A stretch of 64,000 bases of DNA from Candidatus Cloacimonadales bacterium (GCA_963662275.1 OY759316.1:640001-704000), one strand, 5' to 3'. Counted from the stretch's first letter, positions 14,253 to 34,804 are shown. The notes: generated by a model not told the origin, from the letters alone. Program-made: numbers and translations.

Positions 14253-14420
14253 GTAGCTCCGGGTTTAGCCGGTTGTACTATTGTCGCGCCGTCTTCAGTC
14301 GGTCGTTCTTGTAGCTCCGGGTTCAACCGGTTGTACTATTGTCGCGCCGTCTTCAGTCGGTCGTTCTTGTAGCTCCGGGTTTAGCCGGTTGTACTATCGT
14401 TGCGCCGTCTTTAGCCGGTT
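14253..14420. repeat. Three tandem 58-bp units, each with two GTAG/GTCG-led REP-like hairpins
   Basis: gtagctccgggtttagccggttgtactattgtcgcgccgtcttcagtcggtcgttctt starting at 14253, 14311 and 14369. Confidence 0.9.
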
Positions 14421-14454
14421 ATTCTGAATCAATACATGTCAAATAGGAGGAAAT

Positions 14455-16608
14455 ATGCAGCCTGGCAGTTTGGGTAATTTCTTTCATAAAAAATACAAAA
14501 GCTGGTACATTAATCTATTAATAGCACTTGTATTAAGCTTGATTATTCTCTTTTTTCAAAAAACCTCTTTCTTCCAGGATTTTGAATCCAAGACCCTCGA
14601 CTATCGTTTTCGTCTTTTTCCAATAGCAAATCGAACTGACCCGAATGTTGTGATGATAGCCATCGATGACAACAGCCTGCGTGATATGCGTCAGAACCGT
14701 GTTGTCTGGCCTTGGGCACGAGATATGTACGCTGCTGTTGTGAACTATCTTGGCAGCCAGGGAGCAAAAGCTATCATTTTTGATATGCAATTCTATGAAC
14801 CGGATTATGACAGGGCGGATGTAAGTTCTGAAGTTCTAGACCAGGAATTTGCTCAGTCCATCCTTGAGAACCAGCGCGTTGTCCTGGGTATGCAACTGGT
14901 TCCTGATGCCACTTCTATTCCTTCCGAATTATCCAGGTTTGCTTCTCTGAAACCATCTGTGCTTCTTCCTTCCACAACACGTTACAAGGGAGTATTAGCA
15001 CCGTTGCCTCAGTTTATGAATAGTGCTGCGAAAGTTGGTATCATCAATATCGAACCTGATAAAGATGGAGTTATCAGACGTGTGCCGTTTTTGTATCAAT
15101 TCGGAAATAAATACTATCCTCAAATCAGTTATAGCACTTGGTTATTGAACAACCAGGCTGAAAATACCCAATTACATAATTTACCCTTTGATAAAGTAGG
15201 AAACTACCTGATAAACTGGTACGGTCCCGCCGGAGTTAATGGTGTTTTCAAATACTTGCGCTTCACTTCAGTACTTCAATCCGCATCTGCTAACGCTGTT
15301 GGTTTACCTCCTCAAATACCGAACGGTTATTTTAAGGATAAATATGTGATCATTGGTGCTACTGCTGGTGGATTAATGGATTTGAAGATCAGTCCTTATA
15401 CACAGATCATGCCGGGAATGGAAATCTGGGGAACGATACTGAGTAATTTATTGAATCATGACTTCATTCATATTATCCCTTCATGGTTTAATTTTGTCCT
15501 TTTATTGCTAGTTTCCTTCCTTGTGATGATATCATTTTGTCATATCGGCAATAAATGGAATCAGCTAGTTTTGCTGTTGCTGCTGATGTTCATTGTGGCA
15601 TCCAATTTTATCTTGTGGTCAAATGGGAGATATTTACTGAACCTGGTAAGTCCTCTACTGGCTTTTTTTATGGCTTATTTCTATATTCTTGCTATCAGTT
15701 ATCTGATGGAAGGACGGAATAAAAGGGAGATTCGTAAGATCTTTTCCCGTTATCTGCATCCTGACGTTGTGGAGAAACTTGTTGAAAATCCAGATCTTGT
15801 GCAGATGGGAGGTGAAGAAATCGACGCTACCATCCTGTTTTCCGATATCTATAATTTCACTACTCTATCCGAAAAGACAACACCCCAAGAGTTGGTACGT
15901 ACATTGAATGAATATTTCAGTCATTTCACTAACTCGATTTTAGATTTTCATGGTTTATTGGATAAATATACGGGAGATGGTTTGATGGCTCTCTGGGGTG
16001 TACCGATTCCCAGGAAAGATCATGCTTTACTGGCATGCCAGGCAGCTCTTGCCCATAGAGTATACAGCTTGGAACTATTAAGAACAAAACCTGAACTGAC
16101 TGCTGCTGAAAACCTGCATCTATTTACGCGAGTAGGTGTTAATTCAGGTAAGATCGTTGCCGGAAATATCGGTTCTGAACGACGTATGGATTACACTGCC
16201 ATCGGTGATGCCGTGAATCTCTCCGCCCGTTTGGAAGGTGTGAATAAGATTTTTCACACGAATATCATTATCAGCGAATCGACTTATCAGCAGGTTTCTG
16301 ATCTCTTTATTTGCCGTGAATTGGATTACCTCCGTGTGAAAGGAAAGAAGGAACCTACAAGGATATTCGAACTCCTGGACGAGAAAGCCAATTCAGCAAA
16401 AATTGATTATTCCTGGATCGCAGAATACGAAAAAGCCTTGGAGCTTTACCGTAAAGGTGATTGGAAGGAAGCTATTCTCATATTCCAAGCTTTAAATGAA
16501 GGCGACTTGAAAGACCAACCCTCTCTCACGATGCGTGAACGATGCGAATATCTGATCAAGAATCCACCTGCCACCTGGGATGGAATTCTAACACTTGAGG
16601 TCAAATAA
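14455..16608 (+). CDS. CHASE2-domain membrane class III adenylate cyclase with C-terminal TPR-like tail
   Basis: IAIDD..WPW.R CHASE2 motif, three TMs, FSDIYNFT, DKYTGD and TAIGDAVNLSARLE. Confidence 0.92.
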   Translation: MQPGSLGNFFHKKYKSWYINLLIALVLSLIILFFQKTSFFQDFESKTLDYRFRLFPIANRTDPNVVMIAIDDNSLRDMRQNRVVWPWARDMYAAVVNYLGSQGAKAIIFDMQFYEPDYDRADVSSEVLDQEFAQSILENQRVVLGMQLVPDATSIPSELSRFASLKPSVLLPSTTRYKGVLAPLPQFMNSAAKVGIINIEPDKDGVIRRVPFLYQFGNKYYPQISYSTWLLNNQAENTQLHNLPFDKVGNYLINWYGPAGVNGVFKYLRFTSVLQSASANAVGLPPQIPNGYFKDKYVIIGATAGGLMDLKISPYTQIMPGMEIWGTILSNLLNHDFIHIIPSWFNFVLLLLVSFLVMISFCHIGNKWNQLVLLLLLMFIVASNFILWSNGRYLLNLVSPLLAFFMAYFYILAISYLMEGRNKREIRKIFSRYLHPDVVEKLVENPDLVQMGGEEIDATILFSDIYNFTTLSEKTTPQELVRTLNEYFSHFTNSILDFHGLLDKYTGDGLMALWGVPIPRKDHALLACQAALAHRVYSLELLRTKPELTAAENLHLFTRVGVNSGKIVAGNIGSERRMDYTAIGDAVNLSARLEGVNKIFHTNIIISESTYQQVSDLFICRELDYLRVKGKKEPTRIFELLDEKANSAKIDYSWIAEYEKALELYRKGDWKEAILIFQALNEGDLKDQPSLTMRERCEYLIKNPPATWDGILTLEVK

Positions 16609-17055: not shown

Positions 17056-17183
17056 CGGACACCAGACAGCTCCCAAAACCATAGACTTCTGCCTATCATG
17101 CTCCAGGTGACAACTCTCATCACAATAGATGCTCCATTTTGTTATAATTAGATTGCATTCTAATATTAAATCCTGCAAGGATG
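17056..17183. repeat. ~125-bp direct repeat 'A', copy 1 (copy 2 at 26139-26282)
   Basis: cggacacca.cagctcccaaaaccatagacttctgcctatcatgctc...gcattctaatattaaatcctg.aaggatg shared by both copies. Confidence 0.9.
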
Positions 17184-17240
17184 AAATCCGATAGCCTTAG
17201 GCGTAAGCCTCAGGTAACCGATTACCACACATCCATTTGA

Positions 17241-19133
17241 GGAGATGTCCCGAAACTAAATGATAGAAAAATAGCAACTATTAAATATTAATCATATTAC
17301 TTGACATATTGTTATAGGGTGTATTGTTGCCTTTAAAAACTAAGCATAGAGAGAATTATGAATTTCAGAGAGCACAATCCGAATCAGGGGACACTCTATG
17401 GACTTAATATTGAAGAGAGAATACCTCCCCAGCACATGGTTCGTTATGTTAACGATGTCGTTGAGCAACTGGACTTATCTGAGCTATACACAAGATACTC
17501 TGATGAAGGTACACCTGCTTATCATCCCAAGATGATGTTGAAGATCATTGTGTATGCCTATATCAATGGTATTTATACCTGTCGGAAGATAGCTAAGGCT
17601 GTTCGGGAGAACATCAATTTTATCTGGCTGGCAGGAGAACAGGAACCTGATTTCAGAACGATCAACACCTTTGCCTGGACTAAGTGTTCTGATATTCTTA
17701 TTGATGTATTTTATCAGGTAGTACTGAAAGCATCATCATTAGGATATCTTGATCTCGACACCTGTTTTGTTGACGGGACGACGATTCACGCAAATGCCGG
17801 CAAGAATTCCTACATCTGGAAAAGCAATGCGCTTCGTTATCAGGAACTGGTCAAGACACGAGTTGAGGGATTGTTTAAAAAGATCGAGGAATATAATCAG
17901 GAAGAGCAACAGCAATATGGAACCGCTGATCTTCTTGAGCTTGGTGAGCAATTGCATGCGGTTGAATCAGAGAAAACTGCTACAGTCGCATCTGAACAGA
18001 TCAGAGATAGACTGGTCTCAGCAGAAAACAAGCTGAAAGAAGCAATGTCCCGACTACAGAAAAATCATCCGTCAGATACTCGGGCTATCAAGAAAATCAA
18101 ATCTCTTTTGCGCGAAATCTCCAAATCAAAGAGCAATGATATAACTAAGCTGGAGAAATATGAGCAACAGCTTGAGATAATTGGAGAAGGACGCAGCAGC
18201 ACATCCAAGACTGATAATGATGCCACATTTATGCGATTGAAAAATGGACAGCTGGCACCGGGTTATGTTGCCAGTATCGGAACTTCAGAGCAATTTGTCA
18301 CAGGCATTCACTTATTCAATATCCCTAAAGAAACCGTTGAATTTCCCAATCTCATGGAGCAAATGCATGATGAATTGGGACAATATCCTACCGACGTTGT
18401 TGGAGATGCTGCCTATGGCACTGCGCTGAATTTGAATTATGCTGCTGAAAAAGAGATAACAAGCTATCTCAAGACCCAGGATTATAAGAGAGATTATCGG
18501 GACTCTCTTCTGACAGGCTTTAGCTATGATGAGGAGCATGATGAGTGGGTCTGTCAATTTAATCGGAGACTGGTCAAAATCAAGGAAGAAGAGACAGAGA
18601 AGAACGGTCCGAAACGAATCGTGAAAACCTATATATGTAATGACTGCAGAGAATGTCCTCACAATAAAAAGTGTATTCCCTACAAGGATAAAACACATAA
18701 ATCACTGACCTACGATCCTCATATAGCTCCACTAAAACGTCAGACAGTCAATAATCTGCTTTCTGAAAAAGGCGACAAGCTGAGAAAGCAAAGAGGCATC
18801 GAACCGGAGGCTGTATTTGCTTTCATGAAGTGGAACAGGAAGTTTGAGAGATTTACTGTCCGTTCATTGAGAAAATGCAAGGAACAGTTATCCCTCCTCT
18901 TTTTAGGACATAATATAGGGAAAATGTTTCTGCACTTACAAAATACTGAAGGAAAAGCCTGATGAAGACTCTTCCTACCAGAATTCAAACATGAATTAGG
19001 TAAATATTACTCCGTTTTTCCTTGTCTTTGCATCGCTTTTCGGAAACTATTGAGTAATTTAGTTTGCCTGTAAAAACAATCACATATTTTACAACAGAAG
19101 AAAATAAAATCATGCTAGTTTCGGGACATCTCC
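17241..19133 (+). mobile_element. IS1182-family insertion sequence, copy 1 (1893 bp)
   Basis: Perfect 18-bp terminal IRs GGAGATGTCCCGAAACTA; contains the transposase. Confidence 0.95.
17358..18962 (+). CDS. IS1182-family DDE transposase
   Basis: YHPKMMLK, PDFRTI, VDGTTIHANA, TDNDATFM, GDAAY, Cys cluster and IEPEAVF motifs. Confidence 0.93.
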   Translation: MNFREHNPNQGTLYGLNIEERIPPQHMVRYVNDVVEQLDLSELYTRYSDEGTPAYHPKMMLKIIVYAYINGIYTCRKIAKAVRENINFIWLAGEQEPDFRTINTFAWTKCSDILIDVFYQVVLKASSLGYLDLDTCFVDGTTIHANAGKNSYIWKSNALRYQELVKTRVEGLFKKIEEYNQEEQQQYGTADLLELGEQLHAVESEKTATVASEQIRDRLVSAENKLKEAMSRLQKNHPSDTRAIKKIKSLLREISKSKSNDITKLEKYEQQLEIIGEGRSSTSKTDNDATFMRLKNGQLAPGYVASIGTSEQFVTGIHLFNIPKETVEFPNLMEQMHDELGQYPTDVVGDAAYGTALNLNYAAEKEITSYLKTQDYKRDYRDSLLTGFSYDEEHDEWVCQFNRRLVKIKEEETEKNGPKRIVKTYICNDCRECPHNKKCIPYKDKTHKSLTYDPHIAPLKRQTVNNLLSEKGDKLRKQRGIEPEAVFAFMKWNRKFERFTVRSLRKCKEQLSLLFLGHNIGKMFLHLQNTEGKA

Positions 19134-19157
19134 GACATAAATAGACTTAACTAGTTG

Positions 19158-19368
19158 TTATTTGTTATCTTTCTGATCAATTTTCGCTTTCATTAATGCT
19201 GGCAGATTGATTGTCGGTAATGTATATTTGCCGTATAGTCCAAATGAGCTCACATTCCACAAATATCCCCTTACTGAATTTATTGTGATTTGGACTGCTG
19301 AATTGATAAGACCGTTCCTTTTTTCTTCCGGGTTTTCTTCAATGATGTTCAAATCAAATCTGGAAGCT
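19158..19368 (-). pseudogene. 3' remnant of a SecB-like chaperone gene homologous to 24742-25188
   Basis: GLINSAVQITINSVRGYLWNVSSFG...KAKIDQKDNK almost matches the intact gene; the 5' part is missing. Confidence 0.85.
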
Positions 19369-19401
19369 GCTTATTACAATGAGTGTTTTTAATACATACA
19401 C

Positions 19402-19430
19402 TAATGGACGGCTGTTGCTGCCGTCCATTA
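19402..19430. terminator. Hairpin, possible terminator for the minus-strand genes upstream
   Basis: taatggacggc-tgttgct-gccgtccatta. Confidence 0.55.
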
Positions 19431-19462
19431 TGAAAGTTACTTTCTTTCTGTTCAGTTATATA

Positions 19463-19642
19463 TTAACCCTTATTTTGTAAGATAATTGGCTTTCCTTTTG
19501 TGACAAAAAGAATCCTGTCCAAAAGCCTTTGTTTCTCCAGTTGCCTTTGCTCAATGATTTGATCAGTCATTTTGATGATCATATCTTTTATCTGTTCATC
19601 AGTTAAAGATCTCTCATCACTTTGTCTGATTATCGTTTTCAT
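19463..19642 (-). CDS. Small hypothetical protein, 59 aa (MKTIIRQSDERSLTDEQIKDM...), not in the ORF track
   Basis: Manual translation; strong GGAGGA RBS directly after the upstream stop. Confidence 0.55.
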   Translation of the reverse strand: MKTIIRQSDERSLTDEQIKDMIIKMTDQIIEQRQLEKQRLLDRILFVTKGKPIILQNKG

Positions 19643-19656
19643 AATTCCTCCACATT

Positions 19657-20618
19657 CTACAAAATCGTAGGTGCTAAGACTTCGTCACAAGAAATATATC
19701 TAAATCCTTTTTTGTCAACAACTGCTAATTTAACTTGCCCGCCGACTGTTGGGATATCTTCCGTATATTTCTGAAAATCCATTTCTACTCGAAGCAGCAA
19801 GCAAGACAAATCAACTGCTTGTTGTAAACTTAATTCTCCGAGTTTTAAGATTTTTAAATCCTGTTGAATATCAGATACAGCTAGAATTTCTTCACTGATT
19901 TTGAGTAATTTCTCCTGCGATAATTCATAATCAGTAATATCCAACGTTTTGGTTATTATTGGAATAAGTTGTGGTATTAAATTCAACAATTTGAAATAAA
20001 AACCATAGAGAATACCTTCAGTGATCCCATATTGCCCATCATATACTACTGTCTGGAAATCAAGTCGTTGAATAAAACTGATTAGTTTATCATCCTCAAC
20101 TTGCATACCTGGCTGAGTATCATAAATCATGATTTGATACACTTCCGTTTTTTGAGATAATGGAGAGAAATTACTGATAATAAAAGTTGTGTAACCAACT
20201 GCATTGTTATTTGCGATGATTCTTTGATTTTCACTAATAGAAAATCTTTTAAATCAATGATTATCGTTTGTAAATCCATATTGCCGAATTGTGGATTTTG
20301 CCCGTTGATGTCTTTCTTTTCCTGTATCAATTCGGAGATTCTAATGTTGTTTATTCTTGCCGTGCCAGATGTGGTTATTGCAGTAAATTCATCATATTTA
20401 AAAAGCTTCTCTTCAAAATCTCGTGTGTGATGTGGTTTTTACTTAAAGAGATCCATAATTTCCTGTGGATCTAATGAAATTGGATTGGTTCCATTCTCTT
20501 TGTTTTACAATAAAGTGAAAAGGTCATTTTCTTCTATCACTCGAGTGAGTGATGTAACTCAAGAATCTGCTATAACTGCGAAACCATCTCTTGCTTTTAC
20601 TGTAGCTATAAATGTCAT
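19657..20618 (-). pseudogene. Disrupted proteasome-beta-like (Ntn-hydrolase) gene
   Basis: AGGAGG RBS then MTFIATVKARDGFAVIADS* (TGA at codon 20); further frame breaks; C-terminus IPTVGGQVKLAVVDKKGFRYI. Confidence 0.7.
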
Positions 20619-20778
20619 TTAATTCCTCCTTCACCGTCCCAAAATTAACTACTTATATAATACTAATCTTAAGAAAAATGTAAAGAGATTTTTACTCACT
20701 ATCTTTTCATGTAGCTCGACAAGCCCCCAAAGGTTACAAACCTTCGGGGAAAACATTATACGATCATATGGTACAATC

Positions 20779-20868
20779 GTTGGAACGCTGTTTTCAAACG
20801 GCTATGCTCTGCACTTCGGAATAGCCTAATAAATTAAGCGTTCCACCATTTGAAAATAGCGTTCCAAC
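20779..20868. repeat. GGAACGC-type REP inverted pair; the left arm is identical over 31 bp to 16789-16819
   Basis: gttggaacgctgttttcaaa / tttgaaaatagcgttccaac. Confidence 0.8.
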
Positions 20869-20874
20869 AACAAA

Positions 20875-21038
20875 TTCCCGTAGGGATGATAGATATTAAC
20901 ACTGGATTTCAATCCGGTGATATGACTGAAAATCTTCTAATTCCCATAGGGAAGAAAGATATTAACACTGGATTTCAATCCGGTGATATGAGACCCGGCA
21001 CTTTTCCTCTGAATCTCGCAGAGATGAAATCCCATAGC
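20875..21038. repeat. Tandem X-type hairpin units preceding the IS110 insertion
   Basis: agatattaacactggatttcaatccggtgatatga twice, each after an ATTCCC.TAGGGA hairpin, then aatctcgcagagatgaaatcccatagc. Confidence 0.8.
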
Positions 21039-21120
21039 TTACTATAGGAAGGTTAGAAAATTAAGGTAGAAAAACCTCCCTCGTTGATATACATAGATCA
21101 AATCAACAAAGGAGGTAACA

Positions 21121-22398
21121 ATGATTACCACATCAAAATCTAACCCAAAGAGGTTTTTTGTCAACTCAGAAATGATGCTTGTTGGCATTGATATCAGCAA
21201 GCACAAACACAGTGTGTATTTTTGTGATTTTACAGGTGAACGGAAGCGTAAGCCATTTTTTATTACAAACAATCATGATGGTTTTCAGTATCTGCTAAAA
21301 GAAGCAGAACAGCAAAAGCGTTTGTGGAATCTGAACGAGATTGTATTTGGAATGGAACCAACAGGTTCATATGTAAAGCCACTCCAGTACTTCTTGGAAG
21401 AACGCTGCTATCAAATCCAAAGCATCAACCCATTACACACTAAAAGATGGAAGGATATTGAAGATAATCATCCATCCAAGAATGATTTGAAAGACAGTAT
21501 TATCATTACCTCTCTGTTAAGAATGGGCAAGAGCATCCATCATCGGAGACCTGAAGGTGTTTTCGCGGAGTTGAACAACTATGCAGCTTATTATCACCAG
21601 TTAATCACAGATATTCGCAGGCAGAGGAACTATCTGGAAGCCTCTTATGCCTGTTACTTTCCTGAATTGAGTAACTTTTTCAAATTTAACAGTACGGGAG
21701 TAATGTATATCATGGAGTGTTTTCCTCTTCCTCAGGATATCGTAAATGCAGGATATGAGAATTTTCTGAAGATTATGAAAACAAAAAGCAAAGGGTGCAT
21801 AGCTACAGAGAAGCTTCACAGTTTATATCAGGTATCTCTAACAAGTATTGGCATGAGTCAGGGAGCGGATAGTGCGAGAGTGGTCATAAATGCGATCTAT
21901 GAGGATATCAGCTATAAACAATACCATCTCAAACAAATCAAAACAGCAATCATGACATGTGTAGATAAAATCAGTTATGGATCGTTATTGGTGACAATAC
22001 CTGGTTTGAGTAAAGTATCAGTGGGGTTAATTCTGGCGGAGACTGGAGATATCAATCAATATGGTCGATATCAGGATTTAGTCAAACTTGCCGGATTGAG
22101 TTTAAAACACAATCAATCAGGAGAATACCATGGGCAATATCATATCTCTAAGGTAGGAAGAGTAAGGTTGCGAAGGATCTTGTATATGCTTACTCTGGAA
22201 ATGATTATAAACAATCAATTAATCAATCAGATATATAATTATCAAGTAAAAAAGCGAGGTAATAACAAGGTCAAAACTATCGTTTCTTTGAGCAGTAAAT
22301 TACTGGGAATCATGTACTCAATGGTTAAATATGAAAGGTCGTTTGATCCTGAACAGCGAAAGCTATATGCAGGTTATTTAACTGAAAATAATCAGTGA
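21121..22398 (+). CDS. IS110-family DEDD recombinase/transposase
   Basis: VGIDISK, GMEPTG, KNDLKDS, IPGLS and QSG...ISKVG..LR motifs. Confidence 0.93.
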   Translation: MITTSKSNPKRFFVNSEMMLVGIDISKHKHSVYFCDFTGERKRKPFFITNNHDGFQYLLKEAEQQKRLWNLNEIVFGMEPTGSYVKPLQYFLEERCYQIQSINPLHTKRWKDIEDNHPSKNDLKDSIIITSLLRMGKSIHHRRPEGVFAELNNYAAYYHQLITDIRRQRNYLEASYACYFPELSNFFKFNSTGVMYIMECFPLPQDIVNAGYENFLKIMKTKSKGCIATEKLHSLYQVSLTSIGMSQGADSARVVINAIYEDISYKQYHLKQIKTAIMTCVDKISYGSLLVTIPGLSKVSVGLILAETGDINQYGRYQDLVKLAGLSLKHNQSGEYHGQYHISKVGRVRLRRILYMLTLEMIINNQLINQIYNYQVKKRGNNKVKTIVSLSSKLLGIMYSMVKYERSFDPEQRKLYAGYLTENNQ

Positions 22399-22439
22399 GC
22401 CAAGAAAAAAAAGTAGTCAAAAAATAATGGAGGTGTTTA

Positions 22440-22670
22440 GATTGGTTCACTCGCCGGATGATGTAGTCATTAGGCACTAAGGCTTGTTTACAAGACCTTC
22501 TACCATAGCTCATTATAGCACACCGGCGGGTATTATCTCAGATAGGATAAAGTAAGAATAGGATACCATCAGAAGGTAATCCAGTATATCAGCAAGATCG
22601 GGATGTAGAACCAAGAGAGCTTTGATAAGTAATATTCGATTTAATCATAGAATTCAGATCGAAAATCAGC
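22440..22670 (+). ncRNA. Putative bridge/seek RNA region (boundaries approximate)
   Basis: Lies in the 3' NCR of the IS110; contains ccatagc (left target flank) and tatatcagc (element right end); followed by a strong hairpin. Confidence 0.55.
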
Positions 22671-22673
22671 GTC

Positions 22674-22728
22674 TCTGGAACCCTGCAATGACGCTTCGGT
22701 ACCCTACGCGTCATTGCAGGGTTCCAGA
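22674..22728 (+). terminator. 21-bp perfect stem-loop in the IS110 3' region
   Basis: tctggaaccctgcaatgacgc / gcgtcattgcagggttccaga. Confidence 0.65.
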
Positions 22729-22825
22729 AAGCCAAGTACTATGAATATATTATAATATATAACTATCTAACTATATCAGCCTAACGTGTGAACGTCAGGT
22801 AACATATCCCCCAAACACCATTAGA

Positions 22826-24718
22826 GGAGATGTCCCGAAACTAGCATGATTTTATTTTCTTCTGTTGTAAAATATGTGATTGTTTTTACAGGCAAACTAA
22901 ATTACTCAATAGTTTCCGAAAAGCGATGCAAAGACAAGGAAAAACGGAGTAATATTTACCTAATTCATGTTTGAATTCTGGTAGGAAGAGTCTTCATCAG
23001 GCTTTTCCTTCAGTATTTTGTAAGTGCAGAAACATTTTCCCTATATTATGTCCTAAAAAGAGGAGGGATAACTGTTCCTTGCATTTTCTCAATGAACGGA
23101 CAGTAAATCTCTCAAACTTCCTGTTCCACTTCATGAAAGCAAATACAGCCTCCGGTTCGATGCCTCTTTGCTTTCTCAGCTTGTCGCCTTTTTCAGAAAG
23201 CAGATTATTGACTGTCTGACGTTTTAGTGGAGCTATATGAGGATCGTAGGTCAGTGATTTATGAGTTTTATCCTTGTAGGGAATACACTTTTTATTGTGA
23301 GGACATTCTCTGCAGTCATTACATATATAGGTTTTCACGATTCGTTTCGGACCGTTCTTCTCTGTCTCTTCTTCCTTGATTTTGACCAGTCTCCGATTAA
23401 ATTGACAGACCCACTCATCATGCTCCTCATCATAGCTGAAGCCTGTCAGAAGAGAGTCCCGATAATCTCTCTTATAATCCTGGGTCTTGAGATAGCTTGT
23501 TATCTCTTTTTCAGCAGCATAATTCAAATTCAGCGCAGTGCCATAGGCAGCATCTCCAACAACGTCGGTAGGATATTGTCCCAATTCATCATGCATTTGC
23601 TCCATGAGATTGGGAAATTCAACGGTTTCTTTAGGGATATTGAATAAGTGAATGCCTGTGACAAATTGCTCTGAAGTTCCGATACTGGCAACATAACCCG
23701 GTGCCAGCTGTCCATTTTTCAATCGCATAAATGTGGCATCATTATCAGTCTTGGATGTGCTGCTGCGTCCTTCTCCAATTATCTCAAGCTGTTGCTCATA
23801 TTTCTCCAGCTTAGTTATATCATTGCTCTTTGATTTGGAGATTTCGCGCAAAAGAGATTTGATTTTCTTGATAGCCCGAGTATCTGACGGATGATTTTTC
23901 TGTAGTCGGGACATTGCTTCTTTCAGCTTGTTTTCTGCTGAGACCAGTCTATCTCTGATCTGTTCAGATGCGACTGTAGCAGTTTTCTCTGATTCAACCG
24001 CATGCAATTGCTCACCAAGCTCAAGAAGATCAGCGGTTCCATATTGCTGTTGCTCTTCCTGATTATATTCCTCGATCTTTTTAAACAATCCCTCAACTCG
24101 TGTCTTGACCAGTTCCTGATAACGAAGCGCATTGCTTTTCCAGATGTAGGAATTCTTGCCGGCATTTGCGTGAATCGTCGTCCCGTCAACAAAACAGGTG
24201 TCGAGATCAAGATATCCTAATGATGATGCTTTCAGTACTACCTGATAAAATACATCAATAAGAATATCAGAACACTTAGTCCAGGCAAAGGTGTTGATCG
24301 TTCTGAAATCAGGTTCCTGTTCTCCTGCCAGCCAGATAAAATTGATGTTCTCCCGAACAGCCTTAGCTATCTTCCGACAGGTATAAATACCATTGATATA
24401 GGCATACACAATGATCTTCAACATCATCTTGGGATGATAAGCAGGTGTACCTTCATCAGAGTATCTTGTGTATAGCTCAGATAAGTCCAGTTGCTCAACG
24501 ACATCGTTAACATAACGAACCATGTGCTGGGGAGGTATTCTCTCTTCAATATTAAGTCCATAGAGTGTCCCCTGATTCGGATTGTGCTCTCTGAAATTCA
24601 TAATTCTCTCTATGCTTAGTTTTTAAAGGCAACAATACACCCTATAACAATATGTCAAGTAATATGATTAATATTTAATAGTTGCTATTTTTCTATCATT
24701 TAGTTTCGGGACATCTCC
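22826..24718 (-). mobile_element. IS1182-family insertion sequence, copy 2 (inverted, near-identical to copy 1)
   Basis: Same 18-bp IRs, same 1893-bp length and identical protein. Confidence 0.95.
22997..24601 (-). CDS. IS1182-family DDE transposase
   Basis: Translation identical to 17358-18962. Confidence 0.93.
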   Translation of the reverse strand: MNFREHNPNQGTLYGLNIEERIPPQHMVRYVNDVVEQLDLSELYTRYSDEGTPAYHPKMMLKIIVYAYINGIYTCRKIAKAVRENINFIWLAGEQEPDFRTINTFAWTKCSDILIDVFYQVVLKASSLGYLDLDTCFVDGTTIHANAGKNSYIWKSNALRYQELVKTRVEGLFKKIEEYNQEEQQQYGTADLLELGEQLHAVESEKTATVASEQIRDRLVSAENKLKEAMSRLQKNHPSDTRAIKKIKSLLREISKSKSNDITKLEKYEQQLEIIGEGRSSTSKTDNDATFMRLKNGQLAPGYVASIGTSEQFVTGIHLFNIPKETVEFPNLMEQMHDELGQYPTDVVGDAAYGTALNLNYAAEKEITSYLKTQDYKRDYRDSLLTGFSYDEEHDEWVCQFNRRLVKIKEEETEKNGPKRIVKTYICNDCRECPHNKKCIPYKDKTHKSLTYDPHIAPLKRQTVNNLLSEKGDKLRKQRGIEPEAVFAFMKWNRKFERFTVRSLRKCKEQLSLLFLGHNIGKMFLHLQNTEGKA

Positions 24719-24741
24719 GACATAAATAGCTTAATTTGTTC

Positions 24742-25188
24742 TTATTTGTTATCTTTCTGATCAATCTTCGCTTTCATTAAGGCTGGTAAATTAATTGTTG
24801 GTAATGTATATCTGCCATAAATTCCAAATGAGCTCACATTCCACAAGTAGCCCCGTACTGAATTCAATGTGATTTGAACTGCTGAATTGATTAGACCACT
24901 TTTTTGTTCAGGATTCTCATCAATAATATTCAAATCAAAACGTGAAACAGCCTTTATAGCAACGGAATATCCTGGAAGTTTTTCTTTTATGCAATTCACT
25001 TTTATTCCTATCACAATTCTGAATTCATTCGATTCCTTATTTTGGAACAGGTCAAAATCAATATCCAATGGAAGGTCTTTCAAAGCTTGAGATGATTTGA
25101 GAGCTTTCTCAACAGGAAAGATGGATTCAAGGTTACACGTAAGAACGACAAAGTCCTTTAACTCTAATTCAGATCGTAGAATATCCAT
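24742..25188 (-). CDS. SecB-like chaperone of a toxin-antitoxin-chaperone (TAC) module
   Basis: ~150 aa, beta-rich; C-terminal ...VRGYLWNVSS.....YTLPTINL resembles the SecB R..I...T......LP.IN motif; third gene of a TA operon. Confidence 0.75.
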   Translation of the reverse strand: MDILRSELELKDFVVLTCNLESIFPVEKALKSSQALKDLPLDIDFDLFQNKESNEFRIVIGIKVNCIKEKLPGYSVAIKAVSRFDLNIIDENPEQKSGLINSAVQITLNSVRGYLWNVSSFGIYGRYTLPTINLPALMKAKIDQKDNK

Positions 25189-25191
25189 GAA

Positions 25192-25662
25192 TTACCCCTG
25201 CCCATTAAAGATGACAGTACGTTTTGACAATTTTTTGAATTTATATTGGTCACTCGGTTCTACTACTTCTGCAACTTTATCCATTTGTTTCCATAGATTA
25301 TCATTAACGGGCTTCATGTCACAGAATGTAGAATACAAAGGAGGATTGATCTTGATAAATACATTTAGATTCAGTTTCTTTTTCAGAGTAGCTAAAGTTT
25401 CCAAGTTAATGATCTTGTTGCAACTGAATAGCTGGCTAATATAGGATTTTGAAACTCCTAATTTTTCTGCAAGGTCGTTCCTGTTCATGTTGTTTTCTTT
25501 GAGATAGAAATCAATCTGTTCCATAATAATAGAATTCATGATCATTGTTTCAACTTCGATTTGTTCTTCCAAGTTAGAAGTATCAATCAGATTTGCCAGC
25601 TTATTTTGCAGTTCTATATTTTTACCATGTGATTTCATAATCGTACTCCGCAATTGAACCAA
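25192..25662 (-). CDS. HigA-like XRE HTH antitoxin with C-terminal extension (putative ChAD); start probably 25638
   Basis: MNRNDLAEKLGVSKSYISQLF HTH plus a ~50-aa tail; overlaps the toxin gene. Confidence 0.8.
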   Translation of the reverse strand: MVQLRSTIMKSHGKNIELQNKLANLIDTSNLEEQIEVETMIMNSIIMEQIDFYLKENNMNRNDLAEKLGVSKSYISQLFSCNKIINLETLATLKKKLNLNVFIKINPPLYSTFCDMKPVNDNLWKQMDKVAEVVEPSDQYKFKKLSKRTVIFNGQG

Positions 25663-26138: not shown

Positions 26139-26355
26139 CGGACACCAGGCAGCTCCCAAAACCATAGACTTCTGCCTATCATGCTCTAAATGACATGACT
26201 CATCACAATAGATGTTGTAGATCATAGATGCTCCATTTTCAAATAATTAGAATGCATTCTAATATTAAATCCTGTAAGGATGGCAGAAGATAACCCATAG
26301 CGTGAGCTATGGGTGGCGAAATCCCAAGACCCTTAGAACCCCGCCAGGGGTGACA
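26139..26355. repeat. Repeat A copy 2 followed by an intact X site (26268-26355)
   Basis: aatcctgtaaggatg-N-aacccatagcgtgagctatggg-N-ttaga-accccgccaggggt-gaca. Confidence 0.85.
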
Positions 26356-27367: not shown

Positions 27368-30300
27368 TCATCTGTATAAATCTTCTTTTTTTATCCACCA
27401 AGCTTTTTTAGTCCTGGCATATTTGTAGCCAGGCTTTTGGACAGTGCTCCAATGTAATGTTGCTGAATCCCATTCCCTAATTTCATCTGTACTTAATTCC
27501 TGCGGGAATAACTCTAATTGTGAATTTTGTTCTATCAATTTCTTTAGTGGTTTCTTCTTTTCAGGTTCAGGTTCTATTTTTGGTTTATTGGGTTGGTCTG
27601 GTTTTGGAAGAATTGTATCTATTTCCCCATCCTTTTTCTCAGAAGCAGAAGTCGATGGCATAGCTATAGCTTCGTATTGTTCAAGCATTTCCCATAGTGG
27701 TTTTAATGCCTCAATTCGATTTGAATAATATTCTGCACCTCTGACTCTGAAGAAATTCCACCCACACCTTTCCAGAACCTTCTGTCGCATCAAGTCATCC
27801 ATAAATCGTTCAGCATCATGAAATTTGTCGCCATCACACTCTATCGCTATCTTAGTACCATCCTTTAAAAGCACAACTAAATCAATTCTATATCTTCCCT
27901 TGGCTACTTCATATTGAGGTATAACATTATAACCACTATCAACAATATCATTATATACGTCTACTTCAAACCAGCTTTCATAAGGTTGGGGTTGGTTTCC
28001 ATGTTGGCGTGGTACGTTTTTTGTTTCCATAATTTGCTTAGGACGATAATTAAGGAAATGATCAAGTAGCTTATATCGTAAATCATTTGCATTACTCAAA
28101 TCTTCTAACATGACAGAATGAAATAACCAAACTTGGTCTTTTGCTCGACTCATAGCAACATTAAATCTTCTCTCATCATTAGCACCAGTCAATGCAGATC
28201 TCTGATGATTGTGAGCAGTCACCAAACTCAAAAACATGATATCTCGTTCATCTCCCTGAAAACTTGCTGAATTACCACAAATGATCTTTCTTGCGTTAAA
28301 TTCATTTTCCCCTAATTTGCTAATTAATAATCTTTCGATAATCGAAGCTTGTGCGCTCCCCTGTAAAGCTATTACTCCAAATGTTTTTTCGTTATACTCT
28401 GGTTTACTTATTAGTTCTAACATTTTGTTAGCAATACTTTCAGCTTCAACTTTATTTACAATATTCTGACCCTCTCCTTCTTTGTTCCCTGTTTGACAGA
28501 ACTCTGTCATCAGAGGTGGAAGCCTGTTTTCCGAATATTGTCTGAGTGGATAGAGCCCTTTTTTCTCTGGTGAATAAAAGTGCTTATTTGAAAACTCGAT
28601 TATCTCAGGCATACATCTGAAATGTTCCCTCAATACAGTCATACCGTTACATACTACTTTAGCAAAATCGAACAGACTATACTCGATTCCAAATAATTGG
28701 CTTCGAGGAATATCATGTAAATGTTTTACAATGAATGGATCCATTTGATTTTGATTGATACCAACATACTCAGGATTTGTTTGTTTATCGTCACCAACAA
28801 TGATGATATTTTTTGAAATATAAAGCAGGAAAATAGCATCGGCTCCTAATTGACTTGCTTCATCAATTATCACAAAATCATACATTCCCTGCATAGGTGT
28901 TATCGCTTCTGTTACTTTATATAAGGGCATGATCCAACATGGAATTGAATCTTTGCAGTCTTCCATTTCTTTTTGAGCTTGTTTTCTAAATTTTATAGCC
29001 CTTGGACCTCTTCCTGTCTTCCCTATTTTCGCAACAGCTAAAACCCATGCTGATAAATGCTTTCTCAGTTGAGGATTGCTATTCAAACTTTCGAGCACAT
29101 GAAGCCATGCTTTATTTGAGGACAGTTGTGTAATCAATCTTTCTTCCTTAAGATCGAATTCGTTAATTTCATTCGTGAGTTTTTCTTCTATATCGTCTTT
29201 CATAAGCTCTGAAATCATGCTATATGCATGCTTAAAACAGATTGCGCTGTTTAATGATCCTAAATTCTTTGATTCAAAAGTGCCTGACAATATATCTTGA
29301 ACTAATCTCGGGAATGATTGTTTTAATAAATCTTGTAGCTTAATAAAATTATGGTAAGCAATACTCTCATGATTTAGAGTATCAATTTGAGAAAGATGAT
29401 CTGCATAATTTTCACAAACAATATCAGTAAGGTCTTTAATTAAATCCTTTGCTAATGGATGATTTCTTTCATTGGACAAGTACTTGATTGCGAGTTCATA
29501 ATTTCTCTTATATTCCTTTTCAAAAGAAAGCAATCTGCTATGATCAACATAATTGATTGTTTCGTTGATCTTAGCAGTATTCAAATTACCAAAATCCAGA
29601 GCTATGAATGGTTCAATGCGTGATTTCAAATCGTAGGCTGTTTTGAATAGATTCAATAGATTTGATAATTCCTGATTTAATTGAATATATGATTGAATTG
29701 TTTTTGAATATGATTTATCGCTTTTATCGAAGGGATTTGACCAAAGAATATTCAGTTCTGCAATATCCTGCTTAATTCTCAAATCTTCAAGAACAGTTTT
29801 GAATTCTGAAACTGTGTCACATTGACTTCCGTTCACTATTACAGCTTCAATAAAATATAATCTTTCTTTGATATCCTTAGAGAGTAAGTGTTTCTTTAAT
29901 TTGTATATCATCCCAGACAACTTGTTGCCTAAGTTTTGAAAATTAAGCAATGCGAGAGCATCAGCTTTTAACTGGGTTATATCTTTATGATTAGGATAAG
30001 TAATTATGTAATCTCTTTCGAATTCAAGCAATCTCTGTATAGGATGTTCATTGATCAAACTATTTGTTTTCGAGACCCTTTCGCTCCAGTGACCAAGATT
30101 TTTTGGGTAATCATTGATAATTTCAGATTTTAATATGAAAGCAATCCTTTCAATATTGATAAAGACTTCTTTAAGGTCTGATAGGTGATTGAGTAACTGT
30201 TCGTAATCATTGCTTTCAATTATTACATCTCTTGCTTTCCCTTGATATTTTTCTTTTAACGCATTCTGTATTTCACAATATTCCATAAGATTTCTTGCAG

Positions 30301-32119
30301 AAGGCAGCTTTTCTTTCAAGGGGATTCTCAATTCAAATGCTCTACAATCCAAGTTACTGTAATACTTGTGAAGAGAAAACAACTCTTCAATATTCGGTAT
30401 GTAACTGATGTATTTGATATCAGTAATGTCATCGTGGAACCAAGAAAAAATGGATTTATCGTTTTCTAATCTTTCTGCAATATCAATTAACTTTCCCTGG
30501 TAATTACTATTGATAATCTGATTCCGAGTCGATTGTTCTTTAACACTCAGCCATTTATTAGTTGTTTCCGCTTTCTTTTCATTATTATCAGTTAATTTAG
30601 AAGAAAGCTGAGCAATTAGTTTTTTACTTTCTCCAATATTTGCATCAGCAATTTTAGCGTTAATTTCATTCACGCTTGCTTCAAGTTCTTTTACTGATGA
30701 AGAATCTCCGCTTAACAGATTGACTGTCAGACTCTGAAACTCTGGAGGTAACTTATCTTTCAGTACTTCTAAGGCTCTTTTCGTATAAGCAGTCACAAGG
30801 ACTTTTTTCCCATTTGCCAACAAATGACAGATGAGATTAGCTATCGTGTGTGACTTTCCCGTCCCGGGAGGACCTTGAACAAGAACTTTATTGTTCATTC
30901 TTGTTTTTTTAACGATTTCAATTTGCTCATTATTGTATTTTTTAGGGAAATATATAGTATTATCACTCTCTATAAAATGCGTGTTTTCTATACGATCTGG
31001 ATTATCAGGATCATCTTTCGCCTGGTCATCAGTGATAATGTCATTTAGAGAAGGTATATCTATGTTATCAGGAGACGAACTAATTTGAGAAATGATATTA
31101 GCATACATAGCAGTAAAACTTCTTGTATCTCGTTTCCTCATAAGCAGTGCAGGAGCGAAATATACAGTTGGTTCAACTGGTATTACCTTGGGTTTGGCTT
31201 GTTCATTCTTAAATTGACAATCAGCTCTTAATCTTTCGGAAAAAAACTGAATTGTATTGGTAAATTGATTATCAAAGATATCATCAGTTAGTTTTTCATC
31301 ATCAATATGTTGTTTTGTAACATTCTCAGCATCAACGATCGTATTACTGTCGAATTGTGTTGGTAAATCAATAATTGCATCTGTTTCTATCTGGAGTTTA
31401 CCATCAGGACTTGAAGTGACGCAAATATATGTTTCGTTATTTGAAAAATCGAAAGTAACTTCTGCCTTTAAAGTAAATAAATGCCTGCATATTCTTGGCG
31501 TATCATTATTCTCATGAAATGCCAAAAGACCGATACCAAATACTAATTCGAATTCTTCACCGAATTGTTGTACTTTATTGAAAATACTAAAAAACCTTTT
31601 GTAAATTTCACTTTGAAGATCAAACTCACTTTGAAGTTTATTGTATTGGGCACAAACTTCTTTATATGCCCTTCTATCTAACGATAATTGATTGTTAAGA
31701 TATTTCTGAAATTCTGCTACCACTTCCGGTTTTTCCGTTATATTAATCAAAATCCCATCATCTTCAATATTCTGTTTTAAAAATGGTATTTTACTCTCGT
31801 CAATAAGACTTGCAGAATCAATCCATTGAGTAAGGGTTGAACTCAATTTTGGATATGATGGTCGTTGAGGCTCATTTCTGGGTTTGTTTATCTTCAATAA
31901 ATAGTCAGAATCAGAATCATAGTTTGGAAAAGTAAAACAATCAAAAATTTCGACAATGGGAATGTCTGATAACCAAATAATCTCTGGATATTGGGTCTGT
32001 GCATTTTCAATATCCCTTACCGGTTTACTCCTTAATTTTGAAAACTCAAGCAAGTAATTGAATATCTGTAAGTATTTTGCCTTGTTATCATTTCTATCAG
32101 CATTATCAAACCGTTTCAT
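27368..32119 (-). CDS. Upf1-like SF1 helicase fused to a C-terminal Vsr/DUF559-like restriction-fold nuclease
   Basis: QGPPGTGKS, IIDEASQ, VGDDKQ, EHFRC, FQGDERD and RFNVAMSRAK; then ESWFE..YRIDLV..IAIECDG..FH..RQKVLERCGW. Confidence 0.9.
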   Translation of the reverse strand: MKRFDNADRNDNKAKYLQIFNYLLEFSKLRSKPVRDIENAQTQYPEIIWLSDIPIVEIFDCFTFPNYDSDSDYLLKINKPRNEPQRPSYPKLSSTLTQWIDSASLIDESKIPFLKQNIEDDGILINITEKPEVVAEFQKYLNNQLSLDRRAYKEVCAQYNKLQSEFDLQSEIYKRFFSIFNKVQQFGEEFELVFGIGLLAFHENNDTPRICRHLFTLKAEVTFDFSNNETYICVTSSPDGKLQIETDAIIDLPTQFDSNTIVDAENVTKQHIDDEKLTDDIFDNQFTNTIQFFSERLRADCQFKNEQAKPKVIPVEPTVYFAPALLMRKRDTRSFTAMYANIISQISSSPDNIDIPSLNDIITDDQAKDDPDNPDRIENTHFIESDNTIYFPKKYNNEQIEIVKKTRMNNKVLVQGPPGTGKSHTIANLICHLLANGKKVLVTAYTKRALEVLKDKLPPEFQSLTVNLLSGDSSSVKELEASVNEINAKIADANIGESKKLIAQLSSKLTDNNEKKAETTNKWLSVKEQSTRNQIINSNYQGKLIDIAERLENDKSIFSWFHDDITDIKYISYIPNIEELFSLHKYYSNLDCRAFELRIPLKEKLPSARNLMEYCEIQNALKEKYQGKARDVIIESNDYEQLLNHLSDLKEVFINIERIAFILKSEIINDYPKNLGHWSERVSKTNSLINEHPIQRLLEFERDYIITYPNHKDITQLKADALALLNFQNLGNKLSGMIYKLKKHLLSKDIKERLYFIEAVIVNGSQCDTVSEFKTVLEDLRIKQDIAELNILWSNPFDKSDKSYSKTIQSYIQLNQELSNLLNLFKTAYDLKSRIEPFIALDFGNLNTAKINETINYVDHSRLLSFEKEYKRNYELAIKYLSNERNHPLAKDLIKDLTDIVCENYADHLSQIDTLNHESIAYHNFIKLQDLLKQSFPRLVQDILSGTFESKNLGSLNSAICFKHAYSMISELMKDDIEEKLTNEINEFDLKEERLITQLSSNKAWLHVLESLNSNPQLRKHLSAWVLAVAKIGKTGRGPRAIKFRKQAQKEMEDCKDSIPCWIMPLYKVTEAITPMQGMYDFVIIDEASQLGADAIFLLYISKNIIIVGDDKQTNPEYVGINQNQMDPFIVKHLHDIPRSQLFGIEYSLFDFAKVVCNGMTVLREHFRCMPEIIEFSNKHFYSPEKKGLYPLRQYSENRLPPLMTEFCQTGNKEGEGQNIVNKVEAESIANKMLELISKPEYNEKTFGVIALQGSAQASIIERLLISKLGENEFNARKIICGNSASFQGDERDIMFLSLVTAHNHQRSALTGANDERRFNVAMSRAKDQVWLFHSVMLEDLSNANDLRYKLLDHFLNYRPKQIMETKNVPRQHGNQPQPYESWFEVDVYNDIVDSGYNVIPQYEVAKGRYRIDLVVLLKDGTKIAIECDGDKFHDAERFMDDLMRQKVLERCGWNFFRVRGAEYYSNRIEALKPLWEMLEQYEAIAMPSTSASEKKDGEIDTILPKPDQPNKPKIEPEPEKKKPLKKLIEQNSQLELFPQELSTDEIREWDSATLHWSTVQKPGYKYARTKKAWWIKKEDLYR

Positions 32120-34712: not shown

Positions 34713-34804
34713 TGTCACCCCTTGCAGGGTTCAAATCGATTGCGTATTTATATGTTTCCCATAGCTCACGCTATGGGCTAGCGGAGTTGCATCCTTCCAG
34801 GATT
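34713..34804 (-). repeat. Intact X site in reverse orientation
   Basis: Reverse complement reads aatcctggaaggatg...agcccatagcgtgagctatggg...tttga-accctgcaaggggt-gaca. Confidence 0.85.

Follow-up and report, generated by a model that had tools for sequence, protein, structure and literature searches.

What does an insertion sequence (IS) do to its target when the target is itself a small hairpin? The question is raised by a 64,000-nucleotide (nt) stretch of DNA from a Candidatus Cloacimonadales bacterium (GCA_963662275.1 OY759316.1:640001-704000; the window, with positions counted from its first letter), which carries two near-identical copies of an IS1182-family element, each lying where related, unoccupied sites in the same DNA hold a 14-nt hairpin. 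An earlier note on this DNA had proposed that the element replaces this hairpin instead of duplicating its target. Comparison of occupied sites with their unoccupied paralogs makes it probable that hairpin-replacing transposition gave rise to the two copies in the window and to at least 12 of all 20 in the genome.

Two IS copies in paralogous flanks

Copy 1 occupies 17241..19133 (+) and copy 2, in the opposite orientation, 22826..24718 (−); each is 1893 bp long and they differ at 2 of 1893 positions. The IS ends, GGAGATGTCCCGAAACTA ... TAGTTTCGGGACATCTCC, form perfect 18-bp terminal inverted repeats (17241-17258 and 19116-19133 in copy 1), and between them lies a single 534-amino-acid (aa) transposase open reading frame (ORF; 17358..18962, +, in copy 1 and 22997..24601, −, in copy 2). 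This is the layout of the IS1182 family, whose elements measure ~1.3-1.95 kb (ISfinder range). The transposase matches NCBIfam NF033551 (IS1182 family transposase) with 344.7 bits against a cut-off of 270 over residues 6-524 of 534, and it also carries the Pfam domains PF05598 (DUF772) and PF13751 (DDE_Tnp_1_6).

We found that copy 1 is flanked as catccatttga / IS / gacataaatagac and copy 2 as caccattaga / IS / gacataaatagct, that is, by TTWGA on the left and GACATAAATAG on the right, the very position at which intact sister sites hold the hairpin. On the left, an X-type repeat element ending in TTTGA (17056..17240, with a match to the Rfam model RF01687 at 17169-17214, −) abuts copy 1, and a diverged X-type flank ending in TTAGA (22778..22825) abuts copy 2; 17193-17240 and 22778-22825 are direct paralogs within a 66-nt repeat of 76% identity, IS end included. 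On the right, the flanks 19134..19325 and 24719..24909 both begin with GACATAAATAG and are also direct paralogs (86% over 180 nt, 19146-19325 vs. 24730-24909), the latter containing the 3' end of a minus-strand ORF (24742-25188). This 180-nt 3' stretch is all that they share, and the ORFs next to the IS (161 aa at copy 1, 148 aa at copy 2) are not paralogs.

The IS bodies are mutually inverted and 99.9% identical (2/1893 mismatches), whereas the flanks have diverged to 76-86%, and this disparity points to two separate, recent hits on the same position of old paralogs. One could suppose instead that a single insertion was duplicated together with its flanks and that one IS then flipped through its own 18-bp inverted ends; the flanks are indeed paralogous, and with terminal 18 bp that are perfectly symmetric such a flip would leave no trace. 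However, the flank divergence implies a duplication far older than the IS copies, and other sites of the target repeat families were hit independently at unrelated loci. We therefore rejected this explanation, to which we give hardly any chance. Contigs from public sequencing runs bridge both junctions of copy 1 (the left one, 17074-17267, in run X1; the right one, 19107-20100, in X1 and X3), which shows that this assembly did not create them artificially; the stretch occurs in five such runs from two studies, and these, the bridging runs among them, may include the source sample.

The unoccupied state is present in the window as well. A third paralog of the left-flank element, again ending in TTAGA (26139..26337; RF01687 match at 26268-26313, −), is followed by the intact 14-nt hairpin ACCCCGCCAGGGGT (26338..26351; −5.0 kcal/mol as single-stranded DNA, ssDNA) and then by GACA, and a second intact hairpin, ACCCTGCAAGGGGT (34718..34731, −; pattern match and ssDNA fold), lies between TTTGA and GACA. 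The complete sites thus read TTAGA-ACCCCGCCAGGGGT-GACA (26333-26355, +) and TTTGA-ACCCTGCAAGGGGT-GACA (34713-34735, −), a pattern with two matches in the window vs. none in 100 shuffles. These readings bear out what the earlier note had described, namely a 14-nt hairpin between TTWGA and GACA at intact X sites, IS flanks of tttga/IS/gacataaatag and ttaga/IS/gacataaatag with the hairpin gone, and two copies in opposite orientations in diverged targets.

Hairpin-bearing paralogs in two genomes

A survey of all genomic copies, which the earlier note had also proposed, covered the genome of the window (G000; one contig, 4,378,784 bp) and yielded 20 copies (c1 to c20) with 96.8-100% identity, one of them interrupted by another element. 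In the register of a target duplication, 14 copies have no flank match at all, one matches over 1 nt, five over 2 nt and none over 3 nt or more, which is the absence of target duplication that characterizes stem-loop-replacing transposition; the earlier note had held that ordinary duplications at other copies would speak against its proposal, and none was seen. Some IS1182 members reportedly insert at palindromes, of which they duplicate either the loop or the entire stem-loop. The present element resembles them in family and in its palindromic targets; they duplicate the target, whereas here 0/20 flank matches reach 3 nt and no palindrome is left. Each target family contains insertions of both orientations, and we found no orientation bias relative to replication (9 copies co-oriented and 11 opposed in our own tally of G000, whose cumulative GC skew is weak, with a minimum near 4.16 Mb and a maximum near 2.15 Mb).

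For three occupied sites (c5, c9 and c16), paralogs that match both flanks carry a 13-nt hairpin exactly at the IS position. The left flank of c9 aligned to its paralog up to position 900 and the right flank from position 914 (94.7% over 132 nt, gapless), leaving positions 901-913, ACCCCGACGTGGT, as the 13 nt at the IS position. The c16 paralog reads ...ttatctttc-TTCCCGATGAGAT-taagagctg... (97% identity over 37 nt on the left and 94% over 77 nt on the right), and two c5 paralogs have ATCCCGATGGGAT directly after ...agaaagaac, the right-hand alignment being less exact here owing to a GAA-repeat tract. Neither hairpin arm is left beside the IS at any of the three sites.

Comparison by repeat family extends this result. 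R1 units have the layout CACCGGATTGAAATCCAGTG-TTAATATCTTTC-hairpin, and two of them lie in the window between the IS copies (20873..20991, −; hairpin 1, a 12-nt linker, and a 13-nt hairpin 2 at ~20875-20887 and ~20941-20953); at four other genomic sites hairpin 2 of an R1-type unit is replaced by the IS. Among 26 unoccupied R1 paralogs of the left flank of c12/c16, 21 carry a perfect hairpin at the exact junction, four a one-mismatch version and one none, its downstream sequence being unrelated; for the c17 variant the hairpin is perfect at the junction in 11/15 unoccupied paralogs. By way of control, such a hairpin begins at 2.1% of random genome positions. At least 13 X-type ends are unoccupied and bear an ACCCY-loop-RGGGT hairpin, four are occupied by the IS (c3, c4, c9 and c15), and none in the genome lacks both. 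Members of the R2 family account for c1, c5 and c8, and a 13-nt hairpin stands at the c11 position in 3/4 paralogs of related units. As read from the flanks, 12/20 copies are assignable to repeat families whose unoccupied members carry a hairpin at the IS position, and the flanks of these 12 hold no hairpin remnant.

Could these sites simply have lacked the hairpin, the IS having inserted in the ordinary way with a 2-bp (GA) duplication, as the earlier note had allowed? Identical dinucleotides on both sides, GA/GA or TC/TC, do occur in 5/20 copies vs. ~1.25 expected by chance. The same dinucleotides, however, already flank the hairpin in unoccupied sites (ttaGA-hairpin-GAca; ctttc-hairpin-tcag), and the 14 copies without any matching base do not fit a duplication. 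Nor is there an X-type site with neither hairpin nor IS to set against the at least 13 with a hairpin, and a hairpin or its one-mismatch version stands in 25/26 unoccupied R1 paralogs. In view of the pre-existing GA, the 14/20 unmatched copies and the absence of a naked X-type site we rejected this alternative, which we consider highly improbable.

Two loci deserve separate mention. At the c12 and c16 loci (G000:C1 2930169-2932140 and 3518607-3520545), the right flank of c16 matches sequence one repeat unit further downstream at the c12 locus, an arrangement that a deletion between two IS copies could explain, as could a paralog of a single unit. Copy c13 (G000:C1 3133611-3137164, L075) is interrupted near its left end by a ~1.65-kb element encoding a 440-aa DDE_Tnp_1 transposase, and the 11-nt query overlap (47-57) between its BLAST pieces may be the target duplication of that interrupting element.

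A second genome gave the same picture. G003, a complete genome from another family of the order to which G000 belongs, contains a related IS in three copies (59% identical in protein and, where the nucleotide sequences match, 70% identical) with the ends GGGGCTGTCCCGAAACTAAAA...GAGACAGCTCC, and 2/3 of these directly follow an R1-like unit. A search of G003 gave 58 matches to the R1-like pattern vs. 0 to a control pattern; among the 32 distinct R1-like units in the loci examined, the unit is followed by a perfect 13-nt hairpin, mostly GTTCCTACGGAAC, in 29 cases, by an imperfect one in 1 and by the IS in 2. One unoccupied paralog that matches both flanks of an occupied G003 site has GTTCCTCCGGAAC at the IS position. 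Since the G003 pattern matches that of G000, we regard hairpin replacement as conserved in this IS lineage, and its recurrence in a relative with 59% protein identity suggests that it may be a family trait. In an order-wide transposase search, 7/201 genomes, G000 included, gave matches at E≤1e-30; those other than G000 and G003 lie on 1.7-2.6-kb contigs with little or no flank.

With both genomes at hand, one can ask whether the hairpin might be the later arrival, either as a tiny mobile unit at IS sites or as a footprint of IS excision. The resemblance of the IS ends (GTCCCG...CGGGAC) to the hairpin stems would suit this idea, as would the abundance of very small dispersed repeats in G000. 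Against it, larger repeat units contain the hairpin as a constant module in both genomes, which belong to different families, and its stems vary while pairing is kept (TTCCC/GGGAA, GTCCG/CGGAC and GTCAG/CTGAC; GTTCC/GGAAC in G003), which argues for a maintained structure and not for IS-derived sequence. No unit with neither hairpin nor IS was seen, save the single one of 26 R1 paralogs whose downstream sequence is unrelated, and excision footprints should not recur in a constant register in ~30 units of G000 and ~58 of G003. We rejected this explanation on these grounds and hold it to be very unlikely.

Read from the sequences, then, the IS stands exactly at the hairpin position, in either orientation, without duplication, repeatedly and in two genomes. 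What we infer from this is that loss and insertion were concerted, together with the bonds attacked and the physical form of the target. The claim of the earlier note that the hairpin is deleted with no duplication is supported by the paralogs of c5, c9 and c16, with the one G003 paralog and with the comparisons at family level.

Several observations nevertheless weigh against replacement. For 8/20 copies (c2, c6, c7, c10, c13, c14, c18 and c20) there is no convincing hairpin-bearing paralog; among these, c2 appears to differ from the rest, and at c18 and c20 a small palindrome still adjoins the IS. Copies c12 and c16 share an extended left flank and are perhaps not independent on that side. 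The before/after pairs are all paralogs and not alleles of one locus in different strains. The earlier note had looked to empty alleles in related assemblies or reads to see whether they carry the hairpin, and here the outcome was divided: the paralogs do carry it, while no empty allele turned up in 30 relatives, four runs or metagenomes. Specifically, a left-flank search of 30 relatives, one same-genus genome included, found no orthologous region and short repeat matches only; the contigs of four public runs either show the occupied state or do not bridge the site, and none joins 17240 to 19134; degenerate patterns for the empty forms of the two window sites had 0 matches in metagenomes; and a metagenome scan with the 18-nt IS end gave five loci, none with the interior of this IS adjoining and none with a usable junction. 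Finally, the target hairpins are weak (−2.2 to −5 kcal/mol as ssDNA), so that their spontaneous extrusion as cruciforms in duplex DNA is doubtful.

We also considered a two-step course in which the IS inserted in the ordinary way beside or inside the hairpin, which was then lost in a separate deletion through slippage or palindrome repair. Palindromes are prone to deletion, and c18 and c20, with a palindrome still beside the IS, could be intermediates. But the loss is base-exact in all both-flank comparisons (three in G000 and one in G003), the register is consistent over 12 copies with no partial hairpin remnant there, and copies that are mutually 99.7-100% identical already lack the hairpin. 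Moreover, new insertions of another family member, IS1272, between two sister genomes already show replacement. We therefore rejected two-step loss in view of its base-exact and constant register in near-identical copies that are already hairpin-free; it is improbable, though it is the least improbable of the four alternatives that we weighed.

Target recognition, chemistry and precedents

The hairpins at hit sites are 13-14 nt long, with a 5-bp stem, mostly NYCCC/GGGRN, and a 3-4-nt loop. Hairpins of the NYCCC type are rare among the 5-bp-stem hairpins of the genome (e.g. 27 of TTCCC-N3-GGGAA among 6387 with a 3-nt loop), and because of this rarity target choice seems to depend on sequence as well as structure. 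Positions 7-12 of the IS ends, GTCCCG...CGGGAC, are like the target stems. R2 units (G000:C1 ~756257, 758229 and 758334) have a stem that could pair over 6 bp, C-ATCCC...GGGAT-G, and their IS-occupied copies keep the outer C and G, the inner 13 nt alone being missing; this pattern hints that the points of joining may be set by a measured distance, more than by where the stem ends.

The repeats that carry these targets resemble a known RNA motif. The X element contains, and R1 and R2 resemble, the 46-nt two-hairpin Rfam motif Acido-Lenti-1 (RF01687), described by Weinberg et al. 2010 (PMC2864571); the likeness concerns the target repeat and not the IS. X units of the window score 40.3 and 44.3 bits against a gathering cut-off of 37, and the R1 unit, at 22.9 bits, falls below the cut-off but has the same architecture. 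RF01687-like positions in the window are 17169-17214, 26268-26313 and 20874-20919 (all −), and in G000 as a whole 10 matches exceed the cut-off and 34 have E≤0.01. At R1, R2 and c11 sites, which comprise eight copies by flank reading, the IS stands in place of the second hairpin of the model (5-bp stem, 3-nt loop), while at the window sites it replaces the 14-nt hairpin at the far end of X, outside the RF01687 match. The units form arrays with a period of 66-68 nt in G000 and often 87-88 nt in G003, and their stem sequences differ between the two genomes with pairing kept. A generic structural scan for two hairpins joined by a linker told little, with 204 matches vs. 146 in shuffled sequence.

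IS200-like Y1 transposase genes are also present in G000 (15 matches, four of them strong: G000:C1 1451063-1451401, 4083540-4083884, 3137270-3137614 and 440547-440879). Three of the four strong matches lie within ~100-250 nt of Acido-Lenti-1-like or R1 units, a possible association. Y1 genes adjoining repeats recall the arrangement of repetitive extragenic palindromes (REP) and their REP-associated tyrosine transposases (RAYT).

How might replacement proceed? The attacks of a DDE transposase on the two strands of its target are ordinarily offset by a 5' stagger, and repair of the gaps yields a duplication. Here, the transposase would select a short inverted repeat with a 5-bp stem and a 3-4-nt loop, mostly NYCCC-loop-GGGRN, and the two IS ends would become joined at the outer edges of the 13-14-nt unit, which would be lost with no duplication of the target. 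The chemistry is most likely that of the IS1272 model: once the IS is excised, its 3'-OH ends would attack on each strand at the 3' foot of the hairpin, and the target segment would be left as unjoined 3' flaps to be trimmed, and not as gaps to be filled into a duplication. That the attack falls at the feet of an extruded cruciform is something we infer, here as in the literature. Because the hairpins are so short, recognition on ssDNA, or binding of the palindrome as a duplex by a symmetric dimer of the transposase, would be at least as likely as spontaneous extrusion.

The class of mechanism has already been published. For IS1272 and TnSha1 it goes by the names 'IR-replacing' and 'stem-loop-replacing' transposition (RST). 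Wan et al. 2017 (PMC5678879), who compared a pair of sister genomes of Staphylococcus aureus, describe three new IS1272 insertions, each in place of a 22-30-bp inverted-repeat structure and without duplication; the model given there has the IS1272 3'-OH ends attack the 3' feet of a cruciform, the stem-loops being removed afterwards, and is termed 'replacement by structure-dependent transposition'. Furi et al. 2016 (PMC4923244) report of TnSha1/IS1272 that they target hairpins, delete stem-loop sequence without duplication and hit one target repeatedly in both orientations, and also report partial deletions. For palindrome targeting in the IS1182 family, both texts cite Siguier et al. 2015. What the earlier note had presented as known, palindrome targeting usually described with duplication of the stem or loop, thus needs correction, since hairpin replacement together with the cruciform-feet model is published for IS1272/TnSha1.

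Our element resembles IS1272/TnSha1 in its family, its hairpin target, the deletion of that hairpin, the lack of duplication, the use of both orientations and the repeated hits. It differs in that their targets are 22-30 bp long, varied, without consensus and often terminators, with partial deletions (Furi et al.), whereas here whole 13-14-nt units are removed, which share an NYCCC/GGGRN stem and come from dispersed repeat families. For IS1272, sister genomes showed the replacement directly; here the case for it is built on paralogs. The transposase is distant as well: its best plasmid-borne IS1182 relative is 36% identical, and staphylococcal plasmid matches are partial among the matches listed. 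A full-text literature search, supplements and subscription journals excluded, returned no IS1182 member outside staphylococci reported with this mode. This element is thus a new, distant IS1182 member with hairpin replacement; its local features are the use of short, sequence-defined hairpins, their removal as whole units and their location within Acido-Lenti-1-like repeats.

REP-homing IS, such as those of the IS3 and IS110 families in enterobacteria and pseudomonads, insert within or beside a repeat and are not known to remove its hairpin. They share with our element a dispersed hairpin repeat as landing pad (a safe haven), and their transposase families differ from it.

A wider reading, which we offer tentatively and do not favor, is that replacement is an old, conserved mode of a deep IS1182 branch, sequence-specific here, and that Acido-Lenti-1 is in part a DNA-level, REP-like repeat and landing pad. 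The transposase would then home to an NYCCC-loop-GGGRN hairpin that resembles its own subterminal GTCCCG/CGGGAC and closes an Acido-Lenti-1-type two-hairpin unit, and the repeats themselves may have been spread by the neighboring IS200-like Y1 transposases.

Deletion of the target instead of its duplication is unusual for a DDE transposase, and in the literature found its documentation is limited to a single staphylococcal element with its derivative. The present element is a distantly related second case, with many copies and a short, well-defined target unit. A 13-14-nt hairpin with a recognizable stem would also make a cleaner biochemical substrate than the 22-30-bp targets of IS1272. For annotation, such IS copies could be neither delimited nor dated by target duplications, and their insertions could not revert precisely. 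In addition, Acido-Lenti-1, an RNA motif of unknown function, becomes linked to the biology of mobile DNA.

Neighboring features

Between the two IS1182 copies lies an IS110-family transposase gene (21121-22398, +; NF033542 at 177 bits), with R1 units just upstream and, downstream, a 26-nt inverted repeat (22674-22728; 92% complementary, 3-nt spacer). Upstream of copy 1, a 58-nt unit occurs in three tandem copies (14253-14426; 88-100% identical) just ahead of a gene for a protein with CHASE2 and adenylate/guanylate cyclase domains (14455-16608). On the other side, 27368-32119 (−) encodes a protein of 1583 aa that combines superfamily-1 helicase domains (AAA_11/AAA_12) with a nuclease domain, REase_MTES_1575, at its C-terminus, and is followed by small minus-strand ORFs that include one for a helix-turn-helix (HTH) protein (25192-25662). 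Elsewhere in G000, a group II intron reverse transcriptase/maturase gene (G000:C1 1449507-1450838; L076:3508-4839) is located between the IS copy c9 and the unoccupied paralog of that site, adjoining an IS200-like Y1 transposase gene.

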